A stretch of DNA of 64,000 nucleotides from Candidatus Aenigmatarchaeota archaeon. GTDB taxonomy: Archaea > Aenigmatarchaeota > Aenigmatarchaeia > Aenigmatarchaeales > JACQIB01. Position numbers and translations under genes: made by a program. Positions within the stretch are counted from its first letter, which is position 1, and the number at the start of each line of letters is the position of its first letter. The DNA lies in contig JACQIB010000005.1 of NCBI GenBank assembly GCA_016198755.1, forward strand, positions 64,001-128,000. Direction: 5' to 3'. The notes below the pieces were generated by a model that saw only the letters and a program-made list of their open reading frames with translations, had not been told where the DNA came from and did not search any database. Positions 1 through 13,942 of this stretch are shown in pieces.

Positions 1-1726
1 TGTCAAAAACCCCATAAGCGCTTTCCCCGTGTATAGTTCCGGCAACAACATTTGCTAAAGCTCCAATCCTCATTGCCTCGTACAGGGCTATTGCTTCTCT
101 CGATCTTACCTCGCCAATAAACAGACAGGAATCTCCCATTCTAAGAGCTGTTCTGATAGCCTCCTCAGCAGAAAGCTCAAGCTCAACTTTTGTTATAACA
201 CTTCTGGATTTCATTCTTTCAACATTATAGCTCAGCTTTCTCAGAGCCTCTATTGGAAGTTCATAAGTATCCTCAACTGTAATAATTCTGTAATAAGGGA
301 TAACCTGCAACATTAAGGAACCGAGTAGAGAAGTTTTTCCAGAGCCTCTGGTTCCTGCAACTAACAGTGTTCTCCCGTATGTTGTGAAAAACCAGAGCAA
401 ACCAGCTGTTAGTGGATCAAAGAAATGGTTTTGTATAAATAATGGAAATGTCCATGGTTCAAACCTGTGCCTTCTGAAAGCAAAAGCTAATCCTTCCGGT
501 GAAACTCTTGGCCCAATAGCTGCTACTCTTGCAACACCTCCTGGAACAGATATTTCAGTGTCTAAAACAGGATTTGCCTCGTCTAATGGGCGGCCTGATA
601 AAAGCTTAAATCTTGTTGACCATCTCTCCCCGTCCTCTTTTGTTGGAATAATATTTGTTTCACATTCATCAAATTCCTGATGTAGAATAAAAAGCGGTTG
701 TTCACCCAATGGGCTGTTTATGTGTATATCCTGTATCTTTGAGTCTGCAAGCAAAAGCTCCAGTACCCCCAATCCTGTAGTATACCTAGTAAGTATTTGT
801 GCTAACTCTTCAAGTTTTTCCTGTGAAAAGTTAAACCTGCGCAGGCTTGATATGTCCCTTAAAAGTTCTAGAGAAATAGAATGGAAAATATCCCTCATTT
901 TCTCCTGATCTCTGACCTCAAACTCCTGCGGCTTTCTCTCCTCCAGAGCCTTCCTTGAATCATCCAGTACAGTATATTCTTCCTCACTCAAAACAAATTC
1001 GGGCGGAGTTATCTGGTAAATGGGCCTTACTTTTCCAGGAACCTTAAAAATCTCAACTCTTGTTCCCCCGACATTATACTTGTCTATTATTTCCCCGCCT
1101 GCCGGAGGTTTTAACACAAACTTTGTAAGCATAAAGTTAGGTCTTATTATTGGGTGGAACAGTTTTCTGTATACTGAACGATCCCCTATATGGTAGCCTG
1201 TTAAAAAGGGCTGGGCGTTTTTAATTAGGTCTGTTTTTCCCAAAATTGTTTTTATAGGCTCCAGAACAGCTGATAAATAATGTTCAAGCGCTTTTTTCTC
1301 CTTTTCATTTTCTGTTCTTTTCAAAATTATTTTTATATGCCTTATTTCCCTTTCGATATCTAAATATCCTCCTATAGGATCCCCCCTCAACTGGACTGAA
1401 ACAAGTGTATAAAGCCAGCTTTTCCATTTGTCGAAAAACTTGCCGGAAATGGATTTGTCCAGATTTTCATCTGATATAATTTTTTCCTCCATTACGATCC
1501 TGTTTATTGAAGCTGCAATCTGAACAAGCATTTTTGTCTGCTCTGGACCATACTCATTTTCCCTCGTTTCTGCCATTACAACGCTTGTTACTTTTCTCTC
1601 TGAAAGCAGCTTATCTACTACCCGTGCCATGCAAACATCAAAGTCTTCTATGCTGGAGCCAAACAATGCTCCGGAGCAGTTTATCTTCATCCTCCCATCC
1701 TTCAGTTCTGTTACCTCATAAACCAA
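1..1726 (-). CDS. Type II/IV secretion (archaeal pilus assembly) ATPase, VirB11/FlaI-like; runs off the window edge
   Basis: Absent from the ORF track; translated by hand. TTG start at 1726 behind GGGGGAG gives MVYEVTELKDGRMKINCSG... Walker A LLVAGTRGSGKTS, Asp box IITVEDTYEL, Walker B ALRMGDSCLFIGEVR and His box GTIHG are all in the same frame. Confidence 0.92.
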   Translation of the reverse strand, partial: MVYEVTELKDGRMKINCSGALFGSSIEDFDVCMARVVDKLLSERKVTSVVMAETRENEYGPEQTKMLVQIAASINRIVMEEKIISDENLDKSISGKFFDKWKSWLYTLVSVQLRGDPIGGYLDIEREIRHIKIILKRTENEKEKKALEHYLSAVLEPIKTILGKTDLIKNAQPFLTGYHIGDRSVYRKLFHPIIRPNFMLTKFVLKPPAGGEIIDKYNVGGTRVEIFKVPGKVRPIYQITPPEFVLSEEEYTVLDDSRKALEERKPQEFEVRDQEKMRDIFHSISLELLRDISSLRRFNFSQEKLEELAQILTRYTTGLGVLELLLADSKIQDIHINSPLGEQPLFILHQEFDECETNIIPTKEDGERWSTRFKLLSGRPLDEANPVLDTEISVPGGVARVAAIGPRVSPEGLAFAFRRHRFEPWTFPLFIQNHFFDPLTAGLLWFFTTYGRTLLVAGTRGSGKTSLLGSLMLQVIPYYRIITVEDTYELPIEALRKLSYNVERMKSRSVITKVELELSAEEAIRTALRMGDSCLFIGEVRSREAIALYEAMRIGALANVVAGTIHGESAYGVFD

Positions 1727-1800
1727 GCCAAACTCCCCCCTTCTTTTATATATATAGGACAATAAAACTATATTTATCTTTACAGATAAAGGTTTTCCAA

Positions 1801-2142
1801 ATGCCAGAAGTGAATCTTTCAACAGTGCTGAACGAGGCTTTTAGGAGGCTTAATGAAGCTTCCAGAAGATTGAGAGCTTCTGAAGAGAGGTATGATGTTC
1901 TTGAAACAAGGCTGGAAGGGCTGCAAAATACAATGCTTAAAATCAGCGATGAGCTTTCAGGGAAGATAGAGAAAAGTTCAGGGGAACAGAAGGATTTTGA
2001 AGCAAGGTTAGTTAGGATAGAAGCAGATCTTACAAAAATTGGGCAGGCTATGGAAAAGAGCGCAAAATCCTCTGATTTGGAGGAGTTAAAGAATCTTGTG
2101 GAGCTTTATTCCCCGTTTAAAGAAAAGAGAAAGAGTGATTGA
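1801..2142 (+). CDS. Small coiled-coil hypothetical protein (113 aa)
   Basis: ATG at 1801 (MPEVNLSTVLNEAFRRLNE...) with heptad pattern. The upstream part of the listed ORF overlaps the ATPase and is not credible. Confidence 0.8.
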   Translation: MPEVNLSTVLNEAFRRLNEASRRLRASEERYDVLETRLEGLQNTMLKISDELSGKIEKSSGEQKDFEARLVRIEADLTKIGQAMEKSAKSSDLEELKNLVELYSPFKEKRKSD

Positions 2143-2143
2143 A

Positions 2144-2791
2144 ATGGCAGAGAAAAGAGTTTTCATACCAATTGATCTGGCTAAAAAACTGGCTGGGGAA
2201 GGGAAAAATGAGGGGGATATTATTGAGGAATTAAAGAAAAGGGGATTTACACCCTTCCAGATTGACAATGCTCTGAAAGCAGCGCTGAAAGATGCTGTTG
2301 TTCCAAAAAGGCCTTATGTTTCAACCTTACCCCCGCCTCAGGAAAGTATTCCAATGGCTGAATCTGAAACACCTGTGAACGTTGCAGGCGTTGAAAAGCC
2401 TTCTGAAGGCTATCCTCCAGAGAAGATTTTAATTCCTGAAAAGCTCCAGCCATTAGCTCCACCTGGGGAAAGGCCTCCTGCAATGGACGAGACAAAGCCC
2501 AGCGCGGGCGAAGTAACAGTAGAGGAACTTGTAGAGTCTGTTGTTGAGGAGAGATGGCAGGGAATGGCTGAAAAAATCGGTGCTTTTTTGAACAAGGAAG
2601 AATCTATAGCTTCTGAGTTAAAGTCCCTTAGGGAAAAAATAGAGGATGTTTCATCAGCAGAAAAGGCAACAGATTCTACTCTTTCACAGCAGATAGACCA
2701 GTTTTCCTCAGACCATGGGAAACTAGAAACCCGCCTAAAAGCTCTTGAAAAGGCTTTTAAAGAATTTGCAGAATGGTCAAGGAAGAAATAA
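2144..2791 (+). CDS. Hypothetical protein: N-terminal helical domain, Pro-rich linker, C-terminal coiled coil
   Basis: ATG 1 nt after the previous stop; MAEKRVFIPID...IIEELKKRGFTPFQIDNAL; VEELVESVVEERW followed by heptads. Confidence 0.8.
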   Translation: MAEKRVFIPIDLAKKLAGEGKNEGDIIEELKKRGFTPFQIDNALKAALKDAVVPKRPYVSTLPPPQESIPMAESETPVNVAGVEKPSEGYPPEKILIPEKLQPLAPPGERPPAMDETKPSAGEVTVEELVESVVEERWQGMAEKIGAFLNKEESIASELKSLREKIEDVSSAEKATDSTLSQQIDQFSSDHGKLETRLKALEKAFKEFAEWSRKK

Positions 2792-3313
2792 CTACTGACG
2801 CTGCTGTGGGGGCCCTTCCTGTTTCTCCTTTCCTTCCATTACCATCCATATTATAGCAACTATTATTACAATGAAGAAGAATAATGTTACATTTGCCTGC
2901 CCAGAAATATCTATTTGAGGGAATCCAATAAGCTGTAGCCCGCCTGCTCCAACGAAAACAAGCACTGCTATTATCACAAGAGCTGCAGCAAAATATACTT
3001 CGTACTTTTTAATCAGCGTCCCGCCCTTTCCAATTCCAGCTATTTCTAAAAATACCAACAAAATGAGTATTCCCAATACAACCATTACAAGAGCTGAAGA
3101 TAGTTTTGAAAGGAAGCTAATTATTTCTGTGGGAGCTGAAAAAATAACCAAAAACCCTACAACTATAGAGATTATTGCACGTGCAGCATTTGATTGCGGA
3201 AGCTTTACTTGATGTAAAACTCCGTAAACTATTGCAAAGCTCAAAAGCCAGAGCAGTATCTCTGGAAACCCTAAATTTTGTAATGTTGATAAAAATTCAG
3301 CCATTTTTTCCAC
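2792..3313 (-). CDS. Multi-pass membrane protein, paralog 1 of 3
   Basis: About 5 hydrophobic helices; motif LLWLLSFAIVYGVLHQVKLPQSN. Confidence 0.85.
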   Translation of the reverse strand: MEKMAEFLSTLQNLGFPEILLWLLSFAIVYGVLHQVKLPQSNAARAIISIVVGFLVIFSAPTEIISFLSKLSSALVMVVLGILILLVFLEIAGIGKGGTLIKKYEVYFAAALVIIAVLVFVGAGGLQLIGFPQIDISGQANVTLFFFIVIIVAIIWMVMEGKEKQEGPPQQRQ

Positions 3314-3316
3314 CTA

Positions 3317-3838
3317 TTATTTTTTATCCCCGCCTGGCATACCTTCTTTGTACATAAACCAGAAGGCAACCGCGATTATTATTGCGAAAATTACTATCGC
3401 AACAAGTGTATCAGATATTTCTGGAACAGAGATATTTATAACACTCAACCCGCCTGCTCCAATGAAAACAGAGAGAAGAATAAGCAAAATAATGCCTCCG
3501 AAGAACTTTGGATGTGCCATGAAAATATGGGTTCCGCCTGTTTTAACCTGTCCTATCTCAAGGAAGATTACAGCAACTAACAGTCCAACAGCAATCAATA
3601 CTCCAGCTACCACAAGGTTCTGGAGGAAAGCTACAGCTGGGGAAGCTGCTGATGCTAAAAGAACAAGGAAAGCAGCTGAAAGTGCAATTACCCCTTTTGC
3701 AGTGTTTGACTGGGGTATTTTTGCATGGTGTAACATCCCATAAACAACAGCTAAAGTAAGCAGCCAGAGTAAAACCAAAGGGGCTCCAGCATCCCTCAAA
3801 ATCACAATCATATCTTCAATTCCTGCCATTTTAACCAA
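3317..3838 (-). CDS. Multi-pass membrane protein, paralog 2 of 3
   Basis: LLWLLTLAVVYGMLHHAKIPQSN and FLEIG...GGT...FIGAGGL align with paralog 1. Confidence 0.85.
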   Translation of the reverse strand: MVKMAGIEDMIVILRDAGAPLVLLWLLTLAVVYGMLHHAKIPQSNTAKGVIALSAAFLVLLASAASPAVAFLQNLVVAGVLIAVGLLVAVIFLEIGQVKTGGTHIFMAHPKFFGGIILLILLSVFIGAGGLSVINISVPEISDTLVAIVIFAIIIAVAFWFMYKEGMPGGDKK

Positions 3839-3867
3839 TCCTATTTTGCCTCCTATTTATTTAAAGC

Positions 3868-4353
3868 TCAGCCTGCCTGCTTGGGATCGTACTTATAGGC
3901 TATCCAAAAGATGAAAAATATTAAGACCAGCCCTATAATAAAGGCCAAGTTCTGCGAACCTATACTGGGTATGTTTGGAACAGCTGTTATTCCAACCATA
4001 AGGAAAGCAATGAAAGCCAACCCTACAACAATGAGGGTGAAAGGCTCAACCTTTTCTTTCCCAGTCTTATCCTTTCCTATCCCCAAAGCTTTTGCAAGGA
4101 AAATTATAAAGAAAAATACAACAAAAAACCATGCTAAACCCGGTAGGATTTGAAAGAAGGTTGTTGTAAAAGCACTGTTAGTAGCAGCAAAGAGAGCTAT
4201 TCCCAAAGCTACAACAGCATTAACAGGCTTGCTTTTTAAAACTCCAGCAGTCTGCAGAATCCCGAAAACAATTGCAAAAACAAGGACAAAAGGCAGGTAA
4301 AAGGTTTGGTCTAATAAATTAAATGGTAAGCTGAATTCTGCCATATAAACCAC
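3868..4353 (-). CDS. Multi-pass membrane protein, more distant paralog 3
   Basis: LPFVLVFAIVFGILQ...NAVVALGIAL; same helix layout as paralogs 1 and 2. Confidence 0.82.
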   Translation of the reverse strand: MVYMAEFSLPFNLLDQTFYLPFVLVFAIVFGILQTAGVLKSKPVNAVVALGIALFAATNSAFTTTFFQILPGLAWFFVVFFFIIFLAKALGIGKDKTGKEKVEPFTLIVVGLAFIAFLMVGITAVPNIPSIGSQNLAFIIGLVLIFFIFWIAYKYDPKQAG

Positions 4354-4985
4354 TAAACAAATTCCTTTGACCTTTCTAGTTCGCGTATCTTAGCTTCTAA
4401 ATCAGCTTTCCTGAGCCTCCATGCATTTCTGGACTCTTCTAATGCCCTTCTCTCATCTCCGGCTTTAGTGGCCGAATAGGCTATATTCAACTCTCTCATC
4501 TTCTCATCACATACAATTATATCACTCTTCAGCCTGTCAATAACCTTTCCCTGCTCCCTTCTAGACCATATTTTTCCACCCGCTTTTTCCAGCAACATGC
4601 CTCTGGCCGCAGTTGTTGAAGGGTGTAATATCTTAGGTAGCATAAAAATAACCAAGCTGGTTCCAACAGTTACGAGCATCCAGAACTGGGCTGCCGAAGC
4701 TATAAATGCGTACCAACCATTCCAGATAACAAAAATGTAAAATGCAAAAGACATTAAGAGTCCCAGACCTTTATGACCGGTTCCTATTCTACTATATACT
4801 ATAAAGAGCCACAAAACTATGACTATATGTGGGAAGAAAAGCAAATTCAATAAATCTGATGTCATATCTCCGGTTGGCTGAATCTTTAGAATCCCGAAAA
4901 TTAACTCTGCAATATTGACTTGAGACAGGTCTGGAATGTTAATATTGGGGAGTGTTCCGGCCCCTATCTGAAAGAGTGGAAACAT
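4353..4985 (-). CDS. Membrane protein with C-terminal coiled coil
   Basis: About 3 hydrophobic segments followed by a charged heptad tail (LKSDI...LEAKIRELE). Confidence 0.8.
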   Translation of the reverse strand: MFPLFQIGAGTLPNINIPDLSQVNIAELIFGILKIQPTGDMTSDLLNLLFFPHIVIVLWLFIVYSRIGTGHKGLGLLMSFAFYIFVIWNGWYAFIASAAQFWMLVTVGTSLVIFMLPKILHPSTTAARGMLLEKAGGKIWSRREQGKVIDRLKSDIIVCDEKMRELNIAYSATKAGDERRALEESRNAWRLRKADLEAKIRELERSKEFV

Positions 4986-5015
4986 AAGAATTATTCATGA
5001 GCTATACTTATAAGC

Positions 5016-6458
5016 TTACTCTTTCTTTTCATCATCAACTGGTGTTGATGTAACCTCTATTGGCTTATCTTCTGCTTTATCTGGAAGAATATATGTGAAA
5101 GAATCTGCGGCACCCTTTCCACCCTGAACTTTTGTCTTGCCCCTGAAAAATTTCCCAATTGGAAGAGAACCAGGTTTTAGCAACTCGGCTCTTTTCTGTA
5201 TATAGGCAACAACAGTGGCATCTGTAAGCTCCCCGGCTTTTCTCGCCTCGTCCACATCCCTTCTTGCCTGATCAAGTGTTAATCTCAACCCTGCAACATC
5301 GCGACCAACTTCATCTAACATACCCTGCTTTACAGTAGCATCATTTTCTGCAGCCTCTGCCCTCTTTCTCAGCTCTTCAACCCCTATTAACAGGGTTTCC
5401 CTGTCTGAAGGTGCTGCCTGAGCTTGCTGTACTATTTTATCTGCCTCTGCTTTCACTCTTTCTGCTGCAGCTGCCCTTTCCTCTGCAGTTTTCATGGCAG
5501 CCTCTAAAACTTCCCTCCTCCGCTGCATATCACCCTCCTGATCAACAATTCTTGCTTCCCTCAGATTGAGCGCATCTGCTATTGCTTTGTATTTTACAGA
5601 ATTTTCATCTTCAACAGCCTTGAGACCAGCCTTTTCTTTCTCCAACGCCAGCCTTTGCTGTTCTATGTCTTTTTCTTTCCTGCTAACCATATCAAGTTCA
5701 GCTGCAAGAGCAGCAGTTCCAAGCTGCCTCTCCTTTTCTCTATCTTGATATGCTGTCTCTTCTGTCCTTAGCTTGTCATCCCTTTCTTTCAAACTATCTT
5801 CAAGCTCTCTGTATTGAACCCAGCGCTGCCCCAGTTCCTTTGAACTTGCATCTATATCTGTTCTCTTGGCTTCTAGAGCTCTTGAAGTAGACTCAAATGT
5901 TTCTTTTGCCTGCTTAAGTTCTTCTTTCTCCTTATCAATCCTAGCTCTTTCTTCATCTATTTGTGCCTTTTCCCCAGCCAGTTCATTGTCTTTCTCTTTC
6001 ATGCGCGCTGAGGTCTCTGTATTAAACCTTATGTGCTCCTGAAGTTCTGACATTTGTGAATCATACCTGACTTCCCTTCCTGTTAGATTTTCCTCCCTTG
6101 CTCTCAAATCCCTCTCAACACTTCTCAGATGATTCTGGGCTGCCTTTATCTCATCTTCTCTGGCTTTAACTCCATACCTGCTGTTCTTTAGAACATCTGC
6201 TTCCTCTCTGAGTGCAGCAGCATATTCCCTCAAAAACCAGGTTGTTGCATCCCTTTCTAAATTATTTCTTGTTTCTTGGGTACCTATGGGATCTGCAGTC
6301 CTGTAGTGAGAAATAATATCAGCAAACTGCCTATATGCCTTATCACTTAAGCCCTCTACTTCCGGAAGTCCAAATTTTGATGTTATATGAGTGTAAAGGC
6401 TTTGAGCTGCTTTTATGTCCTTTTCTGCTCCGGCTGCCCTTGGATCATCATTTATCAT
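5016..6458 (-). CDS. Long coiled-coil protein with a novel N-terminal domain
   Basis: 480-aa ORF; roughly residues 80-410 are E/K/R/A-rich heptads; own TATA box and SD. Confidence 0.85.
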   Translation of the reverse strand: MINDDPRAAGAEKDIKAAQSLYTHITSKFGLPEVEGLSDKAYRQFADIISHYRTADPIGTQETRNNLERDATTWFLREYAAALREEADVLKNSRYGVKAREDEIKAAQNHLRSVERDLRAREENLTGREVRYDSQMSELQEHIRFNTETSARMKEKDNELAGEKAQIDEERARIDKEKEELKQAKETFESTSRALEAKRTDIDASSKELGQRWVQYRELEDSLKERDDKLRTEETAYQDREKERQLGTAALAAELDMVSRKEKDIEQQRLALEKEKAGLKAVEDENSVKYKAIADALNLREARIVDQEGDMQRRREVLEAAMKTAEERAAAAERVKAEADKIVQQAQAAPSDRETLLIGVEELRKRAEAAENDATVKQGMLDEVGRDVAGLRLTLDQARRDVDEARKAGELTDATVVAYIQKRAELLKPGSLPIGKFFRGKTKVQGGKGAADSFTYILPDKAEDKPIEVTSTPVDDEKKE

Positions 6459-6489
6459 ATTTTATCACTGAATATTAAAACTTAAATAC
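6456..6489 (-). promoter_or_regulatory. Duplicated promoter/start region, copy 1 (TATTTAA box, GTGAT SD, ATG)
   Basis: catattttatcactgaatattaaaacttaaatac matches 8078..8111 at 32/34 nt. Confidence 0.8.
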
Positions 6490-8080
6490 TACCCCATCTT
6501 GCATATGGATCATCATCTGTTGGATTAATCTCTCCTGGTGTTCCACCGTTTCTTTTATGAGGCACTACAGCTGGTTCTACTTCCAACGCTGGCTCCTGTT
6601 CTAAAGGCGGAGCTGATGGTGGCTCAGCGAAAGATACTGGTGGATATGGAACCGATCTTGGTCTAAATGGAACTGGTCCTGGTCTCCATGCTGGAGGTGG
6701 CTGTATAGGCCGTGAACCCTCTTCTACTTGTCCAAATGAAGCAGGCAATGGCTCCTCTCTTCCAGCTCGTTCCCCTTCTCCATATGCCCATGGTGGAGGT
6801 GGTGGAACAGGAGATTGTACTGGTTCATCATACTGAGATGGTGAATATGGTGGTGGCTCTCGAGGAGGAGCGAGTAATGGAATTGACTGTACTGGAGATT
6901 TTGGAGTCTCCGGAGGCGGAGGAATTGGTGATTTGCGTCGTGATAAATAGTATCCTAAACCAGCTCTCATTCTCCCTGCCCCGACTCCCATTTTATATAG
7001 GCCATCACTTGCATACCTTCTAGCAGACCTTCTTGCTGATTTTGCAGGTTTATTTGCTTCTTTTACACTATTCGCTAAGCTCTTTATCCCATCTAAAGTG
7101 TCAATCTCTTTGTTAGCCCATTCTTTTATGCGTTCCAATCTATTATTGTCTCCATAAAAAATAACACGATATCCAGGAGGAGAATTTTTGGAGATATCCA
7201 TCGGAACTTTTCCTTTGAGACTCGAAATTGTTGTTACTGCCCTTTCATCAATTGCAGTGCTATTACGTATCAGGTGATTTACTGCAGCCTCTACTTGGGC
7301 TTTGCTGCCGTAAAATCTTCCTCTCATAACTCTGCCTGTTTTAAGAGGCTTTGTAAGATCTGTTTTTTTCATTAAATATTCAGCAGCTCCGGATTTTGGT
7401 ATTAGAATAGCTGACCCGTCACTTCCGTAGTATGCGTTTGCTTCCCTACCTGGTTGAAATTCATAAGTAACTTTTTCTTTCTTAGGCTTTTGTGTTTTTC
7501 CAGGTTTAATTACTATAACAACCTCATCATCCGCATTTCCGGATTGAGGAATACTGTTACCTGACTCCCGTATATTAAATACCCCACCAATTGGAGTATA
7601 AGGCGATTCCCCTCTGAACCAACTTCTTGGTTTTCCGGTAGTAACTGGTGCTTGTCCGAAAGAAGATGGAACTGTTATGGGCGGAACTCCAGTAACCGGT
7701 TCATCTGAACCAGATGCACCGCTGGGTGAAAGATACCCAGGTCCTTTAACATCCGGAGTAGAAGAAGGTGGTGACGCTGTAGAACTTCCCCCAGCCCTCG
7801 ATTTGGCTGGATTATAAAAAGTATCCATAAACCAGTTGTATGCTGCATCAGCCTCTTCCCTTGAAATTTCTTTGAATCTTCCAGGATCTCCCATTACACG
7901 TGTGTCGACCCTTCTTACAGTAGATGATAATACAGCTAAAACGTCTTTCTCAGGTATTCCGTATTCTTTAACATCGCTCTCAAGAACTCCTGCCCTCCTT
8001 AATATGGATTTGTATAGAGTTCTGGCTCCCTGCATATCTGGACTTTCTGGAGGCGGTGTTGGTTTTTTGAATATTCCCAT
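6482..8080 (-). CDS. Pro-rich multidomain hypothetical protein (532 aa)
   Basis: Long ORF with two globular-looking segments separated and followed by P/S-rich low-complexity regions. Confidence 0.85.
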   Translation of the reverse strand: MGIFKKPTPPPESPDMQGARTLYKSILRRAGVLESDVKEYGIPEKDVLAVLSSTVRRVDTRVMGDPGRFKEISREEADAAYNWFMDTFYNPAKSRAGGSSTASPPSSTPDVKGPGYLSPSGASGSDEPVTGVPPITVPSSFGQAPVTTGKPRSWFRGESPYTPIGGVFNIRESGNSIPQSGNADDEVVIVIKPGKTQKPKKEKVTYEFQPGREANAYYGSDGSAILIPKSGAAEYLMKKTDLTKPLKTGRVMRGRFYGSKAQVEAAVNHLIRNSTAIDERAVTTISSLKGKVPMDISKNSPPGYRVIFYGDNNRLERIKEWANKEIDTLDGIKSLANSVKEANKPAKSARRSARRYASDGLYKMGVGAGRMRAGLGYYLSRRKSPIPPPPETPKSPVQSIPLLAPPREPPPYSPSQYDEPVQSPVPPPPPWAYGEGERAGREEPLPASFGQVEEGSRPIQPPPAWRPGPVPFRPRSVPYPPVSFAEPPSAPPLEQEPALEVEPAVVPHKRNGGTPGEINPTDDDPYARWGSI

Positions 8081-8111
8081 ATTTTATCACTGAATAGTAA
8101 ACCTTAAATAC
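8078..8111 (-). promoter_or_regulatory. Duplicated promoter/start region, copy 2
   Basis: catattttatcactgaatagtaaaccttaaatac. Confidence 0.8.
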
Positions 8112-9299
8112 CTATGGTTTCCCTCCTTCGTCATTATAAATAGTTTCCCAGTCAATTTCTGGTTTGGCATTCTTTTGAGGTGCGGACTTTTTTCTCCTGC
8201 CAAACAAAGTCCACTTTCTTTTGGGAGGTCCTTCTACTACTGTTATGCCTGATTGAGGAACTGGAACTGATACGGGATTAGAAGGTATTGTAGGTCCTAC
8301 AAGAGCTGTTAAACAACTTTGATAAAATTGTTCTGTCGGTCCCCTCAATTCAACATTATCACCCATACCAGCTAGGTCTCCTTTTGCCTTCAAAAGAGCA
8401 TTCATAATATTTCTTTGTTTATCAGTTACCCACAAAACAGCAGACTCCCCATCCCCATCTAAAGGAACTACACCTTTTATTTTAGAAACCATAACTGAAC
8501 CGGGTTTGTCTAAACTATATCTACCTTTCCTGAGTGTATCCAAAACACCGTCTGCATCTGTTTGTGTCATATTAATTAATCTTAATTGTTTTCCGGTATT
8601 TTGCCTTCTTAGATATTCCACTGCACCAGGTGTTAAATAAAGTTTAACTTCACCACCATCAAACCTTCTTATTTTTATTCCCGGCAGGCCTTCAGGAACC
8701 TCTTCATTATAGCCTACTCCGCCTTCTCCTGCAGATTCAACTCTTATTTGAATTGTTTTTACATTACTTTCTGCTCCATGTGAAGATGTTTCTGAACCTC
8801 CTTTAGTATCCTCATGAAATTCAGATGGAAGATTGTCGATCATGACAGTGTTCCAGTAAGCAGCAAATGATTTTGCATCTTCTCCACTAACCTCGTAATT
8901 GCCATTTCCAACATCTTTTACTGTTAATTTGAATCTCTTACCTAAACCTTCGCTATCAAAAACCTCTTTTCTTATCTTATCTAGATAGAATACACTTGAA
9001 TCAGTACGTTGTTTACTGCCCGGGAGCTCTGCTACACTTTGTCCAGTATCTTCGTAAACAGGATCAAGATCAGAATTAGTTGCCTTTTTCCATGCATCTC
9101 TTATTCTTTCAGCATCTTGACCTTCTACTAAGTATCCAGTATTATCCTTTGTGGGGGTTATTGTAATATCTAGGATTCTATCCCAAGCTCTTCTTTTGAT
9201 TTCTGTAAGATATGTTGCGTTTATAACATACCCCTTTACATTCCTGTTTTCTGGACTCTGAGCTTTTGGTTCTTTAGAATCTTCTGCTGCACCTTCCAT
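8112..9299 (-). CDS. Hypothetical protein (395 aa) with an internal tandem domain repeat
   Basis: YLTEIKRRAWD...GYLVEGQDAERIRDAW versus YLDKIRKEVFD...NYEVSGEDAKSFAAYW. Confidence 0.85.
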   Translation of the reverse strand: MEGAAEDSKEPKAQSPENRNVKGYVINATYLTEIKRRAWDRILDITITPTKDNTGYLVEGQDAERIRDAWKKATNSDLDPVYEDTGQSVAELPGSKQRTDSSVFYLDKIRKEVFDSEGLGKRFKLTVKDVGNGNYEVSGEDAKSFAAYWNTVMIDNLPSEFHEDTKGGSETSSHGAESNVKTIQIRVESAGEGGVGYNEEVPEGLPGIKIRRFDGGEVKLYLTPGAVEYLRRQNTGKQLRLINMTQTDADGVLDTLRKGRYSLDKPGSVMVSKIKGVVPLDGDGESAVLWVTDKQRNIMNALLKAKGDLAGMGDNVELRGPTEQFYQSCLTALVGPTIPSNPVSVPVPQSGITVVEGPPKRKWTLFGRRKKSAPQKNAKPEIDWETIYNDEGGKP

Positions 9300-9302
9300 A
9301 TT

Positions 9303-9998
9303 TTATCCCCCAAATCTTTTTGCACGTGCATCAGTGTCACTCAGTATTCTTTCTATTCTCCTATCAAGAGCTACGTCTACACTTGCACCTGCATATGCAA
9401 CCATTCCCCTGTAAAGTGGACTCTGAGCTATCTTTAATCCTTCCATTACACCGGCGAATGTAGCGCCATCATATCCCCTATATTCTACTTGTGCATTTCC
9501 AACAATTACATTATGTGGTGTTCCAGGAGGAAATGCCTGATAAAAGCCTATACCTTCCTGTAATCCAGCAATACGCTTACCTGCATCCTCTTTTACTCTA
9601 ATTAGAGCTTGTTTCTTTACTTCTTTTAATGTATCTGGTTTTTCTATGTTTCTACTCGCTATAAGTGCCGCATCAGATGATGCAGTCAACTCAGACGCAG
9701 GCTTAATTCCCTGTGTAGTAGCTGTATAAATTGCATCTGCTTTCTGATAACCTCCACCGAAAGCTATGCCTCTAAAAAAGCGGTATACATCTCTCAAACC
9801 TATTACACCTAGCAATGGTCCAATTCCAAGATCCTCCCAATCCATCCTTTCTGCAATTGTTAATGTTGCATCGGGCTGCCTCTCCTTTCTTCCTCCGGCA
9901 GTTAACACTGTCTGCTCTGCTCCTAGAATTACATCTATAGGATCATTCTTATCGGGAGGAAGTGACTCCGGTACAAGAACTGTTGTTGTTGGTGCCAT
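9303..9998 (-). CDS. Hypothetical protein (231 aa)
   Basis: ORF preceded by GTGATAAAATATG; ends 3 nt before the start of the next gene. Confidence 0.8.
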   Translation of the reverse strand: MAPTTTVLVPESLPPDKNDPIDVILGAEQTVLTAGGRKERQPDATLTIAERMDWEDLGIGPLLGVIGLRDVYRFFRGIAFGGGYQKADAIYTATTQGIKPASELTASSDAALIASRNIEKPDTLKEVKKQALIRVKEDAGKRIAGLQEGIGFYQAFPPGTPHNVIVGNAQVEYRGYDGATFAGVMEGLKIAQSPLYRGMVAYAGASVDVALDRRIERILSDTDARAKRFGG

Positions 9999-10094
9999 AT
10001 TTTATCACTCATTATTTGGCAGCAAAACAATAAATCCTGAGTGTGAAATTGTTTTACTACCTAATAGTAGTATGTATTAACTAGTATATAAAGC

Positions 10095-11297
10095 CTACTG
10101 TTCGGGTGTTCCACCATTTCCCTTTTGCAACTCTTCCATCATTCTGCGCCTTATTTTGCTTAGTTCCACATCATCTGAATCAGATGGCTCTACTGGAGGG
10201 CTGGATTTTACTTTCTCTGCTACTCTCGCGGTTTCTGAGTCCGGAGACCTTTCACCAAAACCTAAATCCGCCAATACTCTCTTTTTGTTTTCATCGTCTT
10301 GAGATGGCTCAACAGGAACACCACTTTTTATTTCTTCTAAAACTCTATCTGTTTCTGGATCCATAGCCCTTCCGCTTGGTACTCCAGTACCCTGGCCTGC
10401 TTCTGGTTTATCATTCCGCACAGGTGGAACATATCCTGGAACTGGTTTATCAGAAGGCGGCTCGTATGTTGTAGAGACATGAGCTCCTGCAGCATAATCA
10501 CCTAAACCTGGAGTTTTAGCAGGTTCATCACTCTCAAACTCTGCTCCACAACATCCGCACCTAGCATCAGCAGCGCCAACATCTGCACCACACGATGGGC
10601 ACTCGAAAGCTTCTAATTTTTCGTCTTCTCCTTTTGGAGAATCTTCTCCATCTCCGCGATCAAGTCTTGTGAGTCTTGGACTACCGAAACCTTTATCCTT
10701 GGAGATTTTTAACCTGTCTAAAGCAACCCCTACAAGCATCTGGGCTTTTCTTAGATTATTTTCATAATGCAGATCTCCACTGCCCTTCCTCTCTGCTGCC
10801 TGTAAATGAAGCATTGCTGCAGTCACATCAGCCCCTACCTTCTCTGCAGCTTCTATATACCCCCTAACTCTTTCCATCTTAGGATCTAAAATAAGAACGC
10901 GACTTGACCTGTATGGAGGTGCGGGTGGAACTGGCGCCCTTCTTGGCGGTGATGGAGCAGGTCGGGAAGATGAAGGATTAGGATTATGACCTGCCGGAGG
11001 AGTTGGAATTCTCCTTGGAGGTTCATAACCAGAAGATTCTACTGTAGCTGGAGGAAGCGTTATAGGAAGTGCAGTGGGTTTCCTGCTTATTGCTATAGTC
11101 AGCCTATCCTGAATATCTTCTATTCTTGAATCAACTCCAAATTTGCCTTTATAGGGAGTTAAAGCATTCAGAGCAAGTTGGTAAGCTTGTGCAGCTGAAC
11201 CATAATCATGTAACCTTGCTAATCTGTCTCCTGCTCTTACGTAAGCATCTGCTCCAGCAACTTCCTTTCTCTTTTTAGTAATAAGGAGTAATTTCAT
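10095..11297 (-). CDS. Hypothetical protein with TPR/MIT-like helices, Pro-rich linker and double zinc ribbon
   Basis: AGDRLARLHDYGSAAQAYQLAL; FECPSCGADVGAADARCGCCGAEF; short C-terminal repeat ETxRVxExxKSxxPVEPS twice. Confidence 0.82.
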   Translation of the reverse strand: MKLLLITKKRKEVAGADAYVRAGDRLARLHDYGSAAQAYQLALNALTPYKGKFGVDSRIEDIQDRLTIAISRKPTALPITLPPATVESSGYEPPRRIPTPPAGHNPNPSSSRPAPSPPRRAPVPPAPPYRSSRVLILDPKMERVRGYIEAAEKVGADVTAAMLHLQAAERKGSGDLHYENNLRKAQMLVGVALDRLKISKDKGFGSPRLTRLDRGDGEDSPKGEDEKLEAFECPSCGADVGAADARCGCCGAEFESDEPAKTPGLGDYAAGAHVSTTYEPPSDKPVPGYVPPVRNDKPEAGQGTGVPSGRAMDPETDRVLEEIKSGVPVEPSQDDENKKRVLADLGFGERSPDSETARVAEKVKSSPPVEPSDSDDVELSKIRRRMMEELQKGNGGTPEQ

Positions 11298-11330: not shown

Positions 11331-11582
11331 TTACTGTTCTGGGCGCTGGAAGACTCCAAGCTGTGTGCAAATCTCCAGTATAGCCCAAGCCCAGATTACT
11401 GCCTCAAAGGCTCTAACTAAGTCACCGGAGCCTAGAAAGTGCTTTGAGTCGGAAATATAGGCTTTCATGTTTTCCATCATTTCTTCTCCTTTTTCGTCTG
11501 AGAGTTGTATTTGGTCTATAAATGGCTCTATTTTATCCAGCCACTTTTCAACTTCTTTCTCTGTCAGTTTCAACTTGTCCAT
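11331..11582 (-). CDS. DUF357 domain protein
   Basis: MKAYISDSKHFLGSGDLVRAFEAVIWAWA matches the archaeal DUF357 pattern; the family is often found next to dph5. Confidence 0.85.
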   Translation of the reverse strand: MDKLKLTEKEVEKWLDKIEPFIDQIQLSDEKGEEMMENMKAYISDSKHFLGSGDLVRAFEAVIWAWAILEICTQLGVFQRPEQ

Positions 11583-11633: not shown

Positions 11634-12392
11634 TTATTGGCTGCGGGTGGCCTTGAGTTTTTCCAATATAGATTTTTTGACAGACTTGAACTCCGGCACC
11701 ATTGGTATAAGTGGGTCTAGTTCAGAGTTCCAGATAGCCTCTTTAAGGTTCAGGTGCTTTTCAAATTTACCTGGGCTCCAGCTTTCCCTATAATATTCCA
11801 GTTTTTTATCTGTCAATTCCTTATCAAAGGAAACTCCTTTCTCAAGCAGGAACCAAAGATCATAAACATCCCTGGCTTTTGTTCGGCTCATTATAGCCCT
11901 GACCTTTTCAGCCAGTATTTCCCTTTCGTCCATTACTAGGACATCAAACTCCGGTAGTTCCTCAATAAATCTCCCAACGGTTTTAATTAGTGGTTTCAAG
12001 GTTACATTTTCCCTAAAGCTAAAGTCTATGATAAAATTGCAAATGCTGTGCCTTACACCAAGATATAACGGTCCAGTTATTCTAAGAATAATTTTTAAAC
12101 CGTTTTCATACTCCTTTGTCTCAATTTCGTACTCTATACCAAATCTTTTCAGTCCAGACTCTAATTTTTTAGTGTCTACCTTGCCTACGCATGTAAAATC
12201 CAAATCTTCTGAAAACCTGTTCAGACCATAGCATTTTTTTAAGGCAGTGCCACCCTTAAAAATAAGGGTGTTTCCATACTCTTGGTAGAGAATAAACAAT
12301 ATTATATTCTGGATATAGTCCTTTTCTGCTTGGCCTAGATTTTTTAGACCTGCAACTTTTGCATAGTTTTTTAATTCTTCCTTTTGTATCAT
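11634..12392 (-). CDS. AbiEii/DUF1814 nucleotidyltransferase toxin (type IV TA)
   Basis: EKDY, FKGGTAL, RFSEDLDF, EILAEKVRA and KARDVYDL motifs. Confidence 0.92.
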   Translation of the reverse strand: MIQKEELKNYAKVAGLKNLGQAEKDYIQNIILFILYQEYGNTLIFKGGTALKKCYGLNRFSEDLDFTCVGKVDTKKLESGLKRFGIEYEIETKEYENGLKIILRITGPLYLGVRHSICNFIIDFSFRENVTLKPLIKTVGRFIEELPEFDVLVMDEREILAEKVRAIMSRTKARDVYDLWFLLEKGVSFDKELTDKKLEYYRESWSPGKFEKHLNLKEAIWNSELDPLIPMVPEFKSVKKSILEKLKATRSQ

Positions 12393-13075
12393 ATCTTTAG
12401 CCTCCATTTACTATATGTTTTTTCCCATTTCTTTGAGAATGGATTTAAAACGACATAGTTTTTGTCTAAGATAAAGTTGTGAGATATATCCACGCTCTTA
12501 ATAGTTTCCAGTAAATAACCGACTCGCTTAATAACATTGTTATTGCCTGTGATCTGGAGGTATTTAACAACTTTATCCTCATCTATTTTTGCGTTCTCAA
12601 ATATTTTTATTATTTCGTCAAAATTTCCACATTCCTTTGGTCTCAGAAAACAGTCTATTAAAAGCTTTTCATCCTCTGCAATAAAAATATCCCCCTCGTC
12701 CGTTCTTATTTTTTTATAGCCAAAAACTGGCTTAATGGAAACAAATTTTATATCGTACCCTTCAAACTTTATTGGGACGGCTCTTCTTGTGGTCGCGACC
12801 TGAACAGTGTTAAGAATCTGTTCTGTGTAACCAAGAAAGTAGGATGCTGACCAGAACGAGATATAGGAAGGATAAACTATGTTGCTAGCTATCAAGAAAA
12901 TGCTGTCCTTTGTGGTGTAAGCGTTTCTTTTTATCTTTTTTACTAACCCTCTTTGTTTTAACCTGTTCAAAATCAACTTTGCATATATTCCCTTACAATA
13001 CCCAATACGCTCTATATCTTGTATCTTAAAGACCGCTTTAGCTCTAAGCTTATCTAAAAGTTCTATCGCTTTCAT
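12389..13075 (-). CDS. AbiEi-like antitoxin/transcriptional regulator
   Basis: N-terminal wHTH; PSYISFWSASYFLG; EKLLIDC; IKRVGYLLE; stop overlaps the toxin start. Confidence 0.85.
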   Translation of the reverse strand: MKAIELLDKLRAKAVFKIQDIERIGYCKGIYAKLILNRLKQRGLVKKIKRNAYTTKDSIFLIASNIVYPSYISFWSASYFLGYTEQILNTVQVATTRRAVPIKFEGYDIKFVSIKPVFGYKKIRTDEGDIFIAEDEKLLIDCFLRPKECGNFDEIIKIFENAKIDEDKVVKYLQITGNNNVIKRVGYLLETIKSVDISHNFILDKNYVVLNPFSKKWEKTYSKWRLKI

Positions 13076-13216: not shown

Positions 13217-13942
13217 CTATTTGCTGTAAGTTTCCAGAGCTTCCTTTTCCTTAAAGTGGAGCTTTCCTGGCAAAATTAGAACTGCAGGGTATGGGAACCT
13301 TTTCTCCAGCAGTTCTTTTACAGGCGCGTAAACTATAGTTTGCTCTGGGGTTCCTAAAGCTGCTGCAGCAACAAATTTTTCTGCTGGCTTTGTTATTTTG
13401 GCTTTTAACAAAAACTTTAAAGCATCCACAGGGCCCATGTATAGGTTTACTTCAGAGTCTAAGTCTAAAAGCAATAGTGTATGTAAACCGAGCTTTTTGT
13501 TGCCTTCTATTGTTTCTTTCACAGCAGTTAGTTGGCCTGTAAATGGAATAGTAGCTGTGCGTCCGAACTTGTAGAGTTGGAGACCTGTTTCAGCTATTAC
13601 AGAAAAAATGCTTACAGAATGGAAAACCTTACAGGGAACAGACTGCTTTTTGCACTCAAGCAAAAGCTCCATATGGGTTGTGGCTGATAGAGGGTCTCCG
13701 ATTATCAGAACAGCAATATTTTTCTCCTTTGCTCTTTCAACTAGCAAGACAGAATCATCCTCCAAACCCTTCCTTTTAAGCAAAACAGGTTTTTTCCCCA
13801 TTGCCTTTTCTATATCAGCTGCAGAACCTTTCCAGAGGGAAGTATATTGTTCTATATACAGCTCATCAGCTGCTTTTCCAGCTTCTATTCCACCAACTGT
13901 TAAGTCTGCTGGGGAAAGGCCTATTCCAATAAGGTAGAGCAT
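13217..13942 (-). CDS. dph5: Diphthine synthase
   Basis: MLYLIGIGL, YIEQYTS, GDPLSATTH, GLQLYKFGRTATIP, GLHTLLLLD, PGKLHFKE. Confidence 0.95.
   Translation of the reverse strand: MLYLIGIGLSPADLTVGGIEAGKAADELYIEQYTSLWKGSAADIEKAMGKKPVLLKRKGLEDDSVLLVERAKEKNIAVLIIGDPLSATTHMELLLECKKQSVPCKVFHSVSIFSVIAETGLQLYKFGRTATIPFTGQLTAVKETIEGNKKLGLHTLLLLDLDSEVNLYMGPVDALKFLLKAKITKPAEKFVAAAALGTPEQTIVYAPVKELLEKRFPYPAVLILPGKLHFKEKEALETYSK

Follow-up and report, generated by a model that had tools for sequence, protein, structure and literature searches.

Does the group of unannotated genes beside a pilus-type secretion ATPase in an Aenigmatarchaeota (DPANN) cell, a tiny groundwater archaeon, form an apparatus tied to the pilus motor? 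The start of the window (the whole 64,000-nucleotide stretch analysed here) lies within a large type IV pilus-like locus. The initial annotation described nine co-oriented genes converging on two coiled-coil genes that diverge from the ATPase, and this gene layout is real: the ORF listing contains the nine minus-strand ORFs, the convergent genes meet with zero spacing at 2791/2792, and the plus-strand coiled-coil genes diverge from the minus-strand ATPase.

Gene layout at the end of a pilus-like locus

The features are listed below, with the basis of each description in brackets.

1–1729, minus strand: N-terminal two-thirds or so of a CpaF/FlaI-like secretion ATPase (Pfam, NCBIfam, orthologues)
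1730–1800, no strand: AT-rich divergent intergenic region, 71 bp (sequence reading)
1801–2142, plus strand: cc113, small cytoplasmic coiled coil of 113 aa (alignment)
2144–2791, plus strand: cc215, coiled coil of 215 aa (alignment)
2792–3313, minus strand: TM1, 5-TM protein of 173 aa, final gene of the minus-strand operon (paralogy, AF2 model)
3317–3838, minus strand: TM2, 5-TM paralogue of 173 aa, best conserved subfamily (alignment)
3868–4353, minus strand: TM3, 5-TM paralogue of 161 aa (tree clade)
4353–4985, minus strand: TMcc210, 210 aa, three TM helices and a cytoplasmic antiparallel helical hairpin (AF2 model)
5016–6458, minus strand: cc480, soluble coiled-coil ORFan of 480 aa (weak SMC-type coiled-coil matches, codon score)
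6482–8080, minus strand: pro532, proline-rich soluble ORFan of 532 aa (no family match)
8112–9299, minus strand: p395, soluble ORFan of 395 aa (large-collection search)
9303–9998, minus strand: p231, soluble ORFan of 231 aa (no family match)
10095–11297, minus strand: zn400, proline-rich ORFan of 400 aa with a zinc-ribbon-like motif (motif reading)
11331–11582, minus strand: DUF357 gene (Pfam PF04010, E 9e-14)

By the genome's own codon usage every ORF is coding, at 0.10–0.32 per codon (controls: test genes 0.205 ± 0.049, off frame −0.29 ± 0.13). Searched against Pfam, PHROGs, NCBIfam and PADLOC, the eleven unannotated genes from cc113 to zn400 returned only weak, sub-threshold matches of coiled-coil type. 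Only six of them are conserved, namely cc113, cc215, TMcc210, TM1, TM2 and TM3.

The part of the ATPase inside the window matches T2SSE (Pfam PF00437) at E 2.3e-14, the full protein at E 1.3e-17; its NCBIfam matches to FlaI (9.8e-38) and TadA (4e-33) lie far under the equivalog cut-offs. The listed ORF has 782 aa and extends beyond the left edge of the window, as far as G000:C3:63474. Translation probably starts at a TTG near 1729 and not at 1822, giving about 751 aa; both the sequence and the orthologue alignments, which set in at query residues 12–44, mostly 31–35, point to this start. Orthologues occur in 54 of 61 genomes (E <= 1e-150), the divergent gap to cc113 measures about 66–72 bp in the five relatives checked, and the region at 1730–1800 is a candidate promoter. 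Platform and prepilin genes had been suggested for the left flank, and both are there: a TadC/T2SSF platform (Pfam PF00482) and about 15 pilin-like ORFs, judged by eye and without a predictor from a short charged N-terminus followed by a hydrophobic helix. An A24 prepilin peptidase above cut-off is encoded elsewhere in the genome. The pilus gene set of ATPase, platform, pilin-like ORFs and prepilin peptidase is thus complete, which we count in favor of a pilus-accessory role, as we do the lack of coiled-coil or TM-module genes at the genome's second ATPase–TadC pair (C2).

Conserved membrane and coiled-coil families

The description of three paralogous proteins with roughly five TM helices holds: the other two share 39% and 22% identity with the first, and the AF2 model of TM1 (pLDDT 82.8) shows an N-terminal amphipathic helix and five TM helices. 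The Lys/Arg distribution of TM1 fits an N-out/C-in topology. The TM2 alignment (A3) has a mean column identity of 43% over 17 orthologues, and its sequence is held in the Atlas from residue 4. TM3 invariably stands first after the TM-hairpin gene; since 19 of 21 first-position genes fall into one 19-tip clade (support 0.996), the duplication of the array is old and its order fixed. Among 69 family members, conserved residues include a Gly in helix TM1 (64/69), a Glu at the cytoplasmic end of helix TM3 (49/69) and a GG motif (63/69 and 46/69). The family is unnamed, numbers 2726 representatives and occurs as tandem arrays in 59 of the 61 genomes of the class, with three paralogues per array here and 3–5 in relatives. 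It matched nothing in Pfam, NCBIfam, PHROGs or PDB sequences, and Foldseek returned nothing at E <= 0.001 and no convincing fold match.

TMcc210, which is modelled by AF2 with helices at 41–66, 72–88, 92–120, 122–172 and 176–209 and a hairpin at pLDDT 85–97, may be distantly related to TM helices 1–3 of this family (hhalign 39%, E 3e-4). An orthologous TMcc210 gene was detected in 28 of 36 loci, each time immediately upstream of the TM array.

The two coiled-coil genes are themselves paralogous, cc113 aligning with the C-terminal portion of the longer cc215 (hhalign probability 90.8%, E 1.2e-6). An N-terminal motif, RRxNExxRRLRxLEER, is conserved in cc113 (alignment A6, 19 sequences, mean column identity 41%). 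In cc215, a small helical N-terminal domain is followed by a proline-rich linker and a conserved C-terminal coiled coil (alignment A4); inspection of the N-termini by eye, without a predictor, revealed neither a TM segment nor a signal-like hydrophobic stretch. Sub-threshold cc215 matches are weak: RecX_HTH1 in 4 of 19 members, and DUF7310 in 8 of 19. The latter is a Pfam family of coiled coils, with a match above cut-off in one control genome.

The canonical order, in which the TM array converges on cc215–cc113 and this pair diverges from the ATPase(–TadC), is preserved in 27 of the 36 distinct related loci. TM paralogues, TMcc210 and both coiled-coil genes are thus linked to an orthologous ATPase in related genomes, where their separation had been named as the finding that would speak against a common apparatus. 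Rearranged loci keep pieces adjacent, and we count this for a pilus-accessory role: in G011, cc215 follows the TM array in the same orientation after 55 bp, with cc113 beside the ATPase; G009 has cc215 beside the array and cc113 beside the ATPase; in L059 the pair diverges from TMcc210; and in G002 it lies beside the ATPase, the array being about 50 kb from the latter. In all three rearranged genomes of the same order cc113 adjoins the ATPase. The array stands without nearby coiled-coil genes or ATPase in 3 of 36 loci (G002, G051 and G055), and in G051 and G055 ATPase, pair and array are all dispersed. Because the conserved block also includes unrelated housekeeping genes (a TP_methylase-family gene, DUF357 and a TRM5-like gene), synteny here is no proof of shared function; the co-oriented TP_methylase-family gene precedes DUF357 in 18 of 22 loci. 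Co-occurrence cannot discriminate either, because the TM family and the ATPase are both near-universal in the class.

Relation to known accessory systems

In archaella, ArlX of Crenarchaeota is a membrane-anchored coiled coil and ArlC/D/E of Euryarchaeota are cytoplasmic; these proteins are encoded beside a FlaI-type ATPase and a FlaJ/TadC platform and form a cytoplasmic scaffold. The present locus likewise places coiled-coil proteins beside such an ATPase and platform. However, its ATPase reaches 130 bits where the NCBIfam cut-off for FlaI is 550, its coiled-coil genes have no match to FlaC_arch (PF05377), which has a precomputed match in only 1 of 34 cc215 homologues, and we know of no multi-copy 5-TM family in archaella. 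In bacterial type IVa pili, PilM/PilN/PilO comprise membrane-anchored coiled coils joining the motor in the cytoplasm to the part of the machine in the envelope, PilN and PilO being single-pass proteins with periplasmic ferredoxin-like domains. They share no homology with the present genes, and nothing there resembles a tandem 5-TM family. More generally, the six conserved proteins showed no homology past threshold to known pilus or archaellum accessory proteins.

Closer parallels come from pilus loci in archaea. In the parts consulted of Makarova et al. 2016 (PMC4858521), halobacterial subclade 4F loci encode an intracellular coiled-coil protein, arCOG07564, specifically linked to the ATPase–TadC pair, and this ATPase clade is also present in nanoarchaea. 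The likeness is one of description without a sequence link, DUF7310 being matched sub-threshold as given above and having no match at all in this genome, and the portion seen describes no TM array. Hamm et al. 2024 (Nat Commun 15:6449, PMC11291902), as far as consulted, report coiled-coil proteins adjoining CpaF/TadC genes in cluster-2 DPANN, Aenigmarchaeota included, and their proteomic detection in Ca. Nanohaloarchaeum, which we count for a pilus-accessory role. Their loci share with ours a CpaF-like ATPase and TadC with adjacent coiled-coil proteins and a PDB look-alike, reovirus sigma-1 6GAO (profile match to cc215, E 1.9e-4); a cc215 homologue of the same architecture is also present in a nanohaloarchaeon, Ca. 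Nanosalina sp. By description, the coiled-coil genes may belong to the same families as NAR1_03220 and NAR1_01690 of that study. What had been called an undescribed apparatus is therefore only partly so: coiled-coil proteins of this kind are already published, whereas the word "transmembrane" never occurs in the main text as seen, which describes no TM-paralogue array, TM-hairpin protein or hypervariable slot; Supplementary Dataset 13, covering ten genes on either side, may include these genes.

Competing readings and the variable slot

We favor, at roughly even confidence, the reading that the region forms the right-hand edge of the cell's main Tad/archaeal T4P (type IV pilus-like) locus and contains two conserved accessory modules of that machine: the paralogous, cytoplasmic coiled-coil pair divergent from the ATPase, and an operon ending in TMcc210 and the three anciently duplicated 5-TM proteins. 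Next to the TadC platform, the TM paralogues and TMcc210 would build a hetero-oligomeric membrane base. Together with the TMcc210 hairpin in the cytoplasm, the coiled-coil pair may form a scaffold touching the ATPase at its long N-terminal extension, by analogy with archaellar ArlX or ArlCDE or with PilMNO in bacterial pili. It is gene neighborhood and synteny that suggest a physical link between membrane module and motor. The five upstream hydrophilic genes would be co-transcribed with the membrane module.

A less likely explanation, to which we still give appreciable weight, is that TM array, TMcc210 and coiled-coil pair constitute an independent membrane-associated system (membrane remodelling, division or a cell–cell junction, for example) merely lying beside pilus genes in a conserved gene order. 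The housekeeping genes on the other side of the block, the solitary coiled-coil pair of G051 and G055, the distant TM array of G002 and the failure to find pilus accessory homology are all in its favor; yet cc113 and the ATPase diverge over a short gap in the 27 canonical loci and stay neighbors in three rearranged genomes, and the association of coiled-coil and T4P genes extends over several DPANN phyla in what was consulted of Hamm et al. (PMC11291902). Quite improbable, in our judgment, is that the 5-TM paralogues are small solute channel or transporter subunits unrelated to pili, leaving the coiled coils to the pilus alone. Small multi-pass proteins with conserved Gly, Glu and GG positions, near-universal in very reduced genomes, would fit such an essential membrane function. 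Nevertheless, no known transporter, the match that had been named as adverse, emerged from Pfam, NCBIfam, PDB sequences or Foldseek (E <= 0.001); moreover, cc215 accompanies the array in G009, G011 and L059, and wherever TMcc210 was detected the array is headed by this protein with its cytoplasmic coiled-coil hairpin.

The claim that all nine genes form one apparatus fails for the five hydrophilic ones, for which neither 48 related loci nor the rest of this genome contain a homologue; they are strain-specific soluble proteins filling a hypervariable slot, not conserved parts. For p395, a search of a 5.8-billion-protein collection covering homologues of 217–692 aa scored 3776 candidates, none of them at E <= 0.001, although proteins of a close relative, with a cc215 88% identical to the present one, are in the collection; the Atlas held no usable match, its own model having pLDDT 0.45. 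Neither p231 nor pro532 has a family match in Pfam, PHROGs or NCBIfam, and pro532 has no homologue. Pfam and NCBIfam matches are likewise lacking for zn400, whose only PHROG matches, two weak ones with a best E of 0.0022, are to families of unknown function; p231 and zn400 have no relative in viral contigs. Of the zinc-ribbon/TPR label given to zn400, a CxxC...CxCC zinc-ribbon-like motif is visible and no TPR family appears at E <= 0.1. The label "mosaic" comes down to one weak pair, pro532 and p395 (BLASTP E 8e-4, 25% over 89 aa), with no detectable similarity between pro532 and cc480; the latter has 40% charged residues and a codon score of 0.317.

That these five genes came in by horizontal acquisition or as a cassette-like insertion, and serve a separate function outside the apparatus, is a serious possibility, though short of an even one. 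It would account for their absence from the syntenic slot of every relative and that of p395 from the collection, and two AbiE toxin–antitoxin pairs are inserted just upstream; four adjacent genes are low in GC3 (pro532 0.24, p395 0.22, p231 0.23, zn400 0.26; genome 0.35 ± 0.04). Against it, the genes share the orientation of the TM operon and are tightly packed, with gaps of 3–96 bp, their codon-usage scores are typical of the genome, and an integrase, repeat boundary and viral relative were looked for and none found. The upstream border of the slot is the conserved DUF357 gene, probably outside the apparatus; DUF357 is described as a pan-archaeal family of unknown function in the part consulted of PMC6393860. 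Since every relative has 1–6 unrelated soluble genes at the same site, which also argues against such an insertion, the slot itself is conserved.

Gene layout and family assignment

ORF listing and translation bore out the gene layout given in the initial annotation. Nine minus-strand ORFs, all co-oriented and spaced by gaps of 0–96 bp (2792-11297), converge on two plus-strand coiled-coil genes, cc113 (113 aa) and cc215 (215 aa), which are separated from the divergent ATPase gene by an AT-rich spacer of 71 bp:

1..1729, minus strand: pilus-type ATPase
1801-2142, plus strand: cc113, coiled-coil protein
2144-2791, plus strand: cc215, coiled-coil protein
2792-4353, minus strand: TM1, TM2 and TM3, paralogous 5-TM proteins
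4353-4985, minus strand: TMcc210, three TM helices and a helical hairpin
5016-6458, minus strand: cc480, ORFan
6482-8080, minus strand: pro532, ORFan
8112-9299, minus strand: p395, ORFan
9303-9998, minus strand: p231, ORFan
10095-11297, minus strand: zn400, ORFan
11331-11582: DUF357 gene
11634-13075: AbiEii/AbiEi-type toxin-antitoxin pair
13217-13942: TP_methylase-family gene
13972-15179: AbiEii/AbiEi-type toxin-antitoxin pair
15312-16040: TRM5-like gene

No base separates the stop codon of cc215 (TAA, plus strand) from that of TM1 (TAG, minus strand) at 2789-2794 (2791/2792), which leaves no space for an intergenic terminator. All of the ORFs look coding by the codon usage of the genome, scoring 0.10–0.32 per codon, where held-out long ORFs score 0.205 ± 0.049 and off-frame readings −0.29 ± 0.13. 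The only sequencing runs containing this stretch are four groundwater metagenomic DNA runs from one study, possibly its sample of origin, with no RNA run among them. Searches of Pfam, PHROGs, NCBIfam and PADLOC assigned a family to the ATPase alone, as had been expected from the sequence, and returned nothing for the other genes beyond weak coiled-coil cross-matches. The TPR label originally given to the 400-aa protein zn400 was dropped, as no TPR family matched it, and the description of some proteins as mosaic has one weak protein pair behind it (E = 8e-4), the other pair tested showing nothing. The interpretation offered at the outset, a membrane channel or anchor with a scaffold linked to the pilus motor, is as a whole supported in part.

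A class-wide membrane protein family and its gene neighbourhood

Searched with a profile built on TM1, TM2 and TM3, 59 of the 61 genomes of the class, the studied genome included, showed tandem TM-family arrays; the two genomes without a match are 83% and 81% complete. The AF2 model of the family, built on a 69-sequence alignment (pLDDT 82.8), comprises an N-terminal amphipathic helix followed by five TM helices. Lys/Arg residues per TM protein amount to 1.1 in loop 1, 3.1 in loop 3 and 1.5 at the C-terminus, against 0.03 in loop 2 and 0.23 in loop 4. Additionally, six of the 69 members (from loci L022, L023, L026 and L027, and two genes from L024) carry an extra hydrophobic, signal-peptide-like segment at the N-terminus, which ends in an A/V-x-A-like site ahead of the amphipathic helix. 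This segment implies a putatively exported N-terminus in the members that carry it and, combined with the Lys/Arg distribution over the loops, fits a predicted N-out/C-in topology of the TM proteins. Conserved positions include G31 (64/69), E90 at the predicted cytoplasmic end of the TM3 helix (49/69), and G124 and G125 (63/69 and 46/69, respectively).

In a midpoint-rooted FastTree phylogeny, 19 of the 21 genes lying directly after TMcc210 fell into one clade of 19 tips with a support of 0.996; genes at second and later positions grouped more loosely, with 16/17 tips (support 0.09) and 18/19 tips (support 0.42). The first-position clade indicates that at least one TM duplication is older than the class and that gene order has been fixed. 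An exhaustive profile search yielded 2726 cluster representatives at E ≤ 0.001, of which 969 reached E ≤ 1e-10, and every homologue name seen was "hypothetical protein". Atlas clusters for the family carry the labels Methanobacteriota (score 0.93) and Nanobdellota (0.90), which are database labels and putative. A single homologue labelled "Naiadarchaeales" does not speak for an occurrence in Undinarchaeota, as its locus (L068) is built like those of the studied genome's own family. The TM2 group has no relative in IMG/VR.

A match of the TM proteins to a known, unrelated transporter, which the initial annotation would have taken as a refutation, was not found: searches of Pfam, PHROG, NCBIfam and PADLOC linked the 5-TM paralogues to no named family of transporters or channels, and the 69-sequence profile gave zero matches to PDB sequences at E ≤ 1. 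Foldseek returned nothing at E ≤ 0.001 for the TM model against PDB folds, and the best VIA wide match of this model (Z 7.2, 70 residues) covers helix hairpins only and lies below the chance level for helical models. A relationship between the TM family and TadC was not supported, with an hhalign probability of only 0.5% between the two alignments. For TMcc210, the model comprises three TM helices and then a confident antiparallel helical hairpin, for which the fold search retrieved generic helical hairpins and no specific fold (best E 0.57); its hhalign probability against the TM family is 39%.

Gene order was read with family HMMs, built from the first matches, in 36 distinct loci (20 retrieved by identifier and 28 found by scanning species genomes, minus 12 duplicates). 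In 27 of the 36, TMcc210 and three to five TM genes converge on cc215 and cc113, which diverge from the ATPase gene, with DUF357 and variable genes before TMcc210 and TadC after the ATPase as optional outer members. The neighbourhood conservation proposed as a check was observed within the class for the six genes from cc113 to TMcc210. Among the nine non-canonical loci, three stop at a contig edge (L036, L040, L062), two retain cc215 alone beside the TM array (L019, L021), one has the coiled-coil pair divergent from TMcc210 (L059), and three have neither the coiled-coil genes nor the ATPase at the TM array (L016, L032, L034). Rearrangements supply the main argument for a functional tie, as the coiled-coil genes then keep next to one or other partner. 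In the related genome G002, cc113 and cc215 stay with the ATPase, ~50 kb away from the TM array; in G009, cc113 lies with the ATPase and cc215 is convergent on the TM array; and in G011, cc113 again accompanies the ATPase and cc215 is co-oriented, 55 bp beyond the last TM gene. In G051 and G055, which belong to different families within the class, the three modules are all dispersed and the coiled-coil pair is still together. The two coiled-coil proteins are themselves related, cc113 being paralogous to the C-terminal part of cc215 (hhalign 90.8%, E 1.2e-6).

The upstream border calls for caution in reading synteny. In 18 of 22 loci, DUF357 has a co-oriented TP_methylase-family gene, inferred to be diphthine-synthase-like, upstream of it, and a TRM5-like gene on the opposite strand often comes next; DUF357 itself is described in the available text of PMC6393860 as a pan-archaeal family of no assigned function that is linked elsewhere to other genes. 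The presence of these three genes in one conserved block indicates that the block mixes unrelated functions. They lie close together in relatives and are split in the window by the two AbiE pairs inserted among them.

A conserved slot of variable content

The space between the DUF357 gene and TMcc210 contains one to six co-oriented genes in all 23 relatives with both borders on the locus, and these genes share almost no sequence clusters, so the position of this slot is conserved and its content is hypervariable. Counting the five ORFans of the window, 42 of 44 slot proteins have no TM segment, and the median charged fraction of slot proteins is 0.31 vs 0.25 for the genome. The five ORFans have no homologue among the ORFs of 48 related loci (phmmer, E ≤ 0.1), no paralogue in the studied genome and no phmmer match at E ≤ 1 in L068; against three slots of the same family type, BLASTP gave a single, non-significant match (E 0.012). 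Motifs seemingly shared with slot proteins of G002, G005 and L068 (a repeat of ~50 aa, a "GG...PL" segment, and a zinc ribbon like that of a 309-aa protein of L068) were seen by eye and are not claimed, the one BLASTP match at E 0.012 and the absence of phmmer matches at E ≤ 1 lending them no support. For p395, there was nothing among 3776 scored candidates of a 5.8-billion-protein collection and no usable Atlas match; the same collection includes a closer relative, represented by a 75-kb contig whose cc215 and TM1 are 88% and 72% identical, respectively.

Slot variation may have arisen through cassette replacement or through very fast divergence. The four adjacent ORFans at 6482-11297 have a GC3 of 0.22–0.26 vs 0.35 ± 0.04 for long ORFs of the genome, and their overall GC of 0.38–0.45 is at or above the genome level; the low GC3 suggests that these genes differ in origin or in the selection acting on them. 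A viral origin was considered and rejected, as p231 and zn400 have no IMG/VR relatives and PHROGs gave nothing meaningful. A defence system was likewise set aside, the PADLOC matches being only weak SMC-like coiled-coil cross-matches.

The pilus locus and possible roles of the module

The studied genome (890,842 bp, 6 contigs), in which the window occupies G000:C3:64001-128000, is estimated to be 89% complete. Its ATPase (782 aa as listed) belongs to the T2SSE/VirB11 superfamily (PF00437, E 1.3e-17, 63.9 bits vs a cut-off of 24.9). Inspection of the left flank, as initially suggested, revealed the ATPase followed by a plus-strand HTH/DUF6015 gene, a T2SSF/TadC platform gene (767 aa; PF00482, E 8.7e-9, 35.9 bits vs a cut-off of 25.2) and then pilin-like ORFs. 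About 15 minus-strand ORFs of this flank, judged by eye, encode a short charged N-terminus followed by a hydrophobic helix and are candidate pilin-like substrates with putative class III signal peptides. The three large ones are paralogues, of which one (729 aa, left-flank locus L002 10448-12637) carries two C-terminal CARDB domains (E 1.5e-26), domains typical of archaeal cell-surface proteins. Given these flanking genes, the studied module lies at the border of the principal type IV pilus-like locus in this genome. Two further features accompany it:

G000:C3:61852-63477 (L002 15852-17477), plus strand: HTH/DUF6015 protein, 541 aa, between the ATPase and TadC genes
G000:C5:178825-179118, on another contig: A24 prepilin peptidase (PF01478, 29.6 bits, above cut-off)

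The TadC gene directly adjoins the ATPase gene in the relatives examined, and the studied genome has one gene in between; the 541-aa protein encoded there contains several HTH motifs, ends in a DUF6015 domain (E 1.1e-26) and was seen in this genome only. At G000:C2:188292-192655, a second, minimal pair consists of a 665-aa ATPase and a 597-aa TadC and is accompanied by one pilin-like gene, with no coiled-coil or TM-array genes alongside.

Part of this locus has published counterparts. Across cluster-2 DPANN archaea, Aenigmarchaeota included, Hamm et al. 2024 described two type IV pilus loci that are conserved and carry coiled-coil proteins (CCPs) that resemble reovirus sigma-1 (6GAO), some of which were detected in Ca. 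Nanohaloarchaeum by proteomics (available text of PMC11291902). The cc113/cc215 genes likewise lie beside the ATPase, here and in the 27 loci. The structure 6GAO is also a match of the cc215 profile (E 1.9e-4), which in addition retrieves a homologue of the same architecture from the nanohaloarchaeon Ca. Nanosalina sp. (E 1.8e-29). Look-alike and homologue lend indirect support to a putative homology with the CCPs NAR1_03220 and NAR1_01690. The initial description of the apparatus as undescribed must accordingly be narrowed: its coiled-coil part is already known in kind, while no publication on the TM array was found in the literature on DPANN or Aenigmatarchaeota pili and coiled-coil proteins. 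The word "transmembrane" is absent from the main text of PMC11291902, whose neighbourhood table sits in its supplements, and the available sections of Makarova et al. 2016 (PMC4858521) and Makarova et al. 2019 (PMC6393860) report that pilus loci contain dark-matter genes as well as coiled-coil ones, and describe no such TM array. DUF7310 (PF23991; gathering score 40 bits) weakly matched 8 of 19 cc215 members, with a best E of 1.1e-5, and gave no match at E ≤ 0.01 in the window cc215 or the studied genome; no publication on this family was found.

The analysis delineates an unnamed, class-wide membrane family whose gene order is fixed and whose paralogy is old, and which synteny ties to a published pilus-plus-coiled-coil locus, and, beside this machine, a slot of soluble proteins fixed in place and hypervariable in sequence. 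The TM module thereby provides specific candidate proteins for the membrane portion of the machine. The chances appear evenly balanced for an arrangement in which the TM paralogues and TMcc210 would form a hetero-oligomeric membrane base, and the TMcc210 hairpin with the cc113/cc215 pair would build, through putative contacts, a cytoplasmic scaffold on the N-terminal extension of the ATPase. Base and scaffold would parallel ArlX, ArlCDE or PilMNO as analogous but not homologous parts. A complex prediction of cc113, cc215 118-215 and TMcc210 116-210 scored 0.00 in two control-free runs and speaks neither for nor against these contacts. Should the link hold, the TM module would add to the known components of archaeal type IV filament machines; otherwise, the TM family would still stand as a nearly universal family of no assigned function in very small genomes.

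The ATPase matches FlaI and TadA NCBIfam models far under their equivalog cut-offs, reaching 130.2 bits vs 550 for the archaellum FlaI model NF058587; FlaC_arch (PF05377) is absent from the Pfam scans of cc113 and cc215, and its three weak matches in a genome-wide search at E ≤ 1 all lie outside these genes. The ATPase and coiled-coil genes thus differ from those of an archaellum on both counts. DPANN archaea live attached to hosts, and cryo-ET studies of Nanobdellota have reportedly revealed large attachment organelles with no genes named, the main text of PMC11420986 containing no pilus, ATPase or coiled-coil term; to our knowledge, the proteins of DPANN contact structures are largely unidentified. 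It is conceivable, and in our view improbable, that the 5-TM, TM-hairpin and coiled-coil proteins and the pilus-type ATPase constitute such a host-contact or cytoplasmic-bridge organelle, with the slot proteins as strain-specific cargo or host-matching adaptors; their turnover would then stem from an arms race with the host.

The window ATPase carries no intein, and orthologues in four related loci (L017 13824-17600, L018 2845-8181, L025 4386-8117 and L029 12537-16280) reach 1243–1778 aa through in-frame insertions of ~500 aa. Counted along the window ATPase, they lie around residues 514-519 or 572-574, with both sites filled in L018, and the insertion in L017 matches Intein_splicing (E 3.6e-25) and LAGLIDADG_3 (E 8.7e-16).
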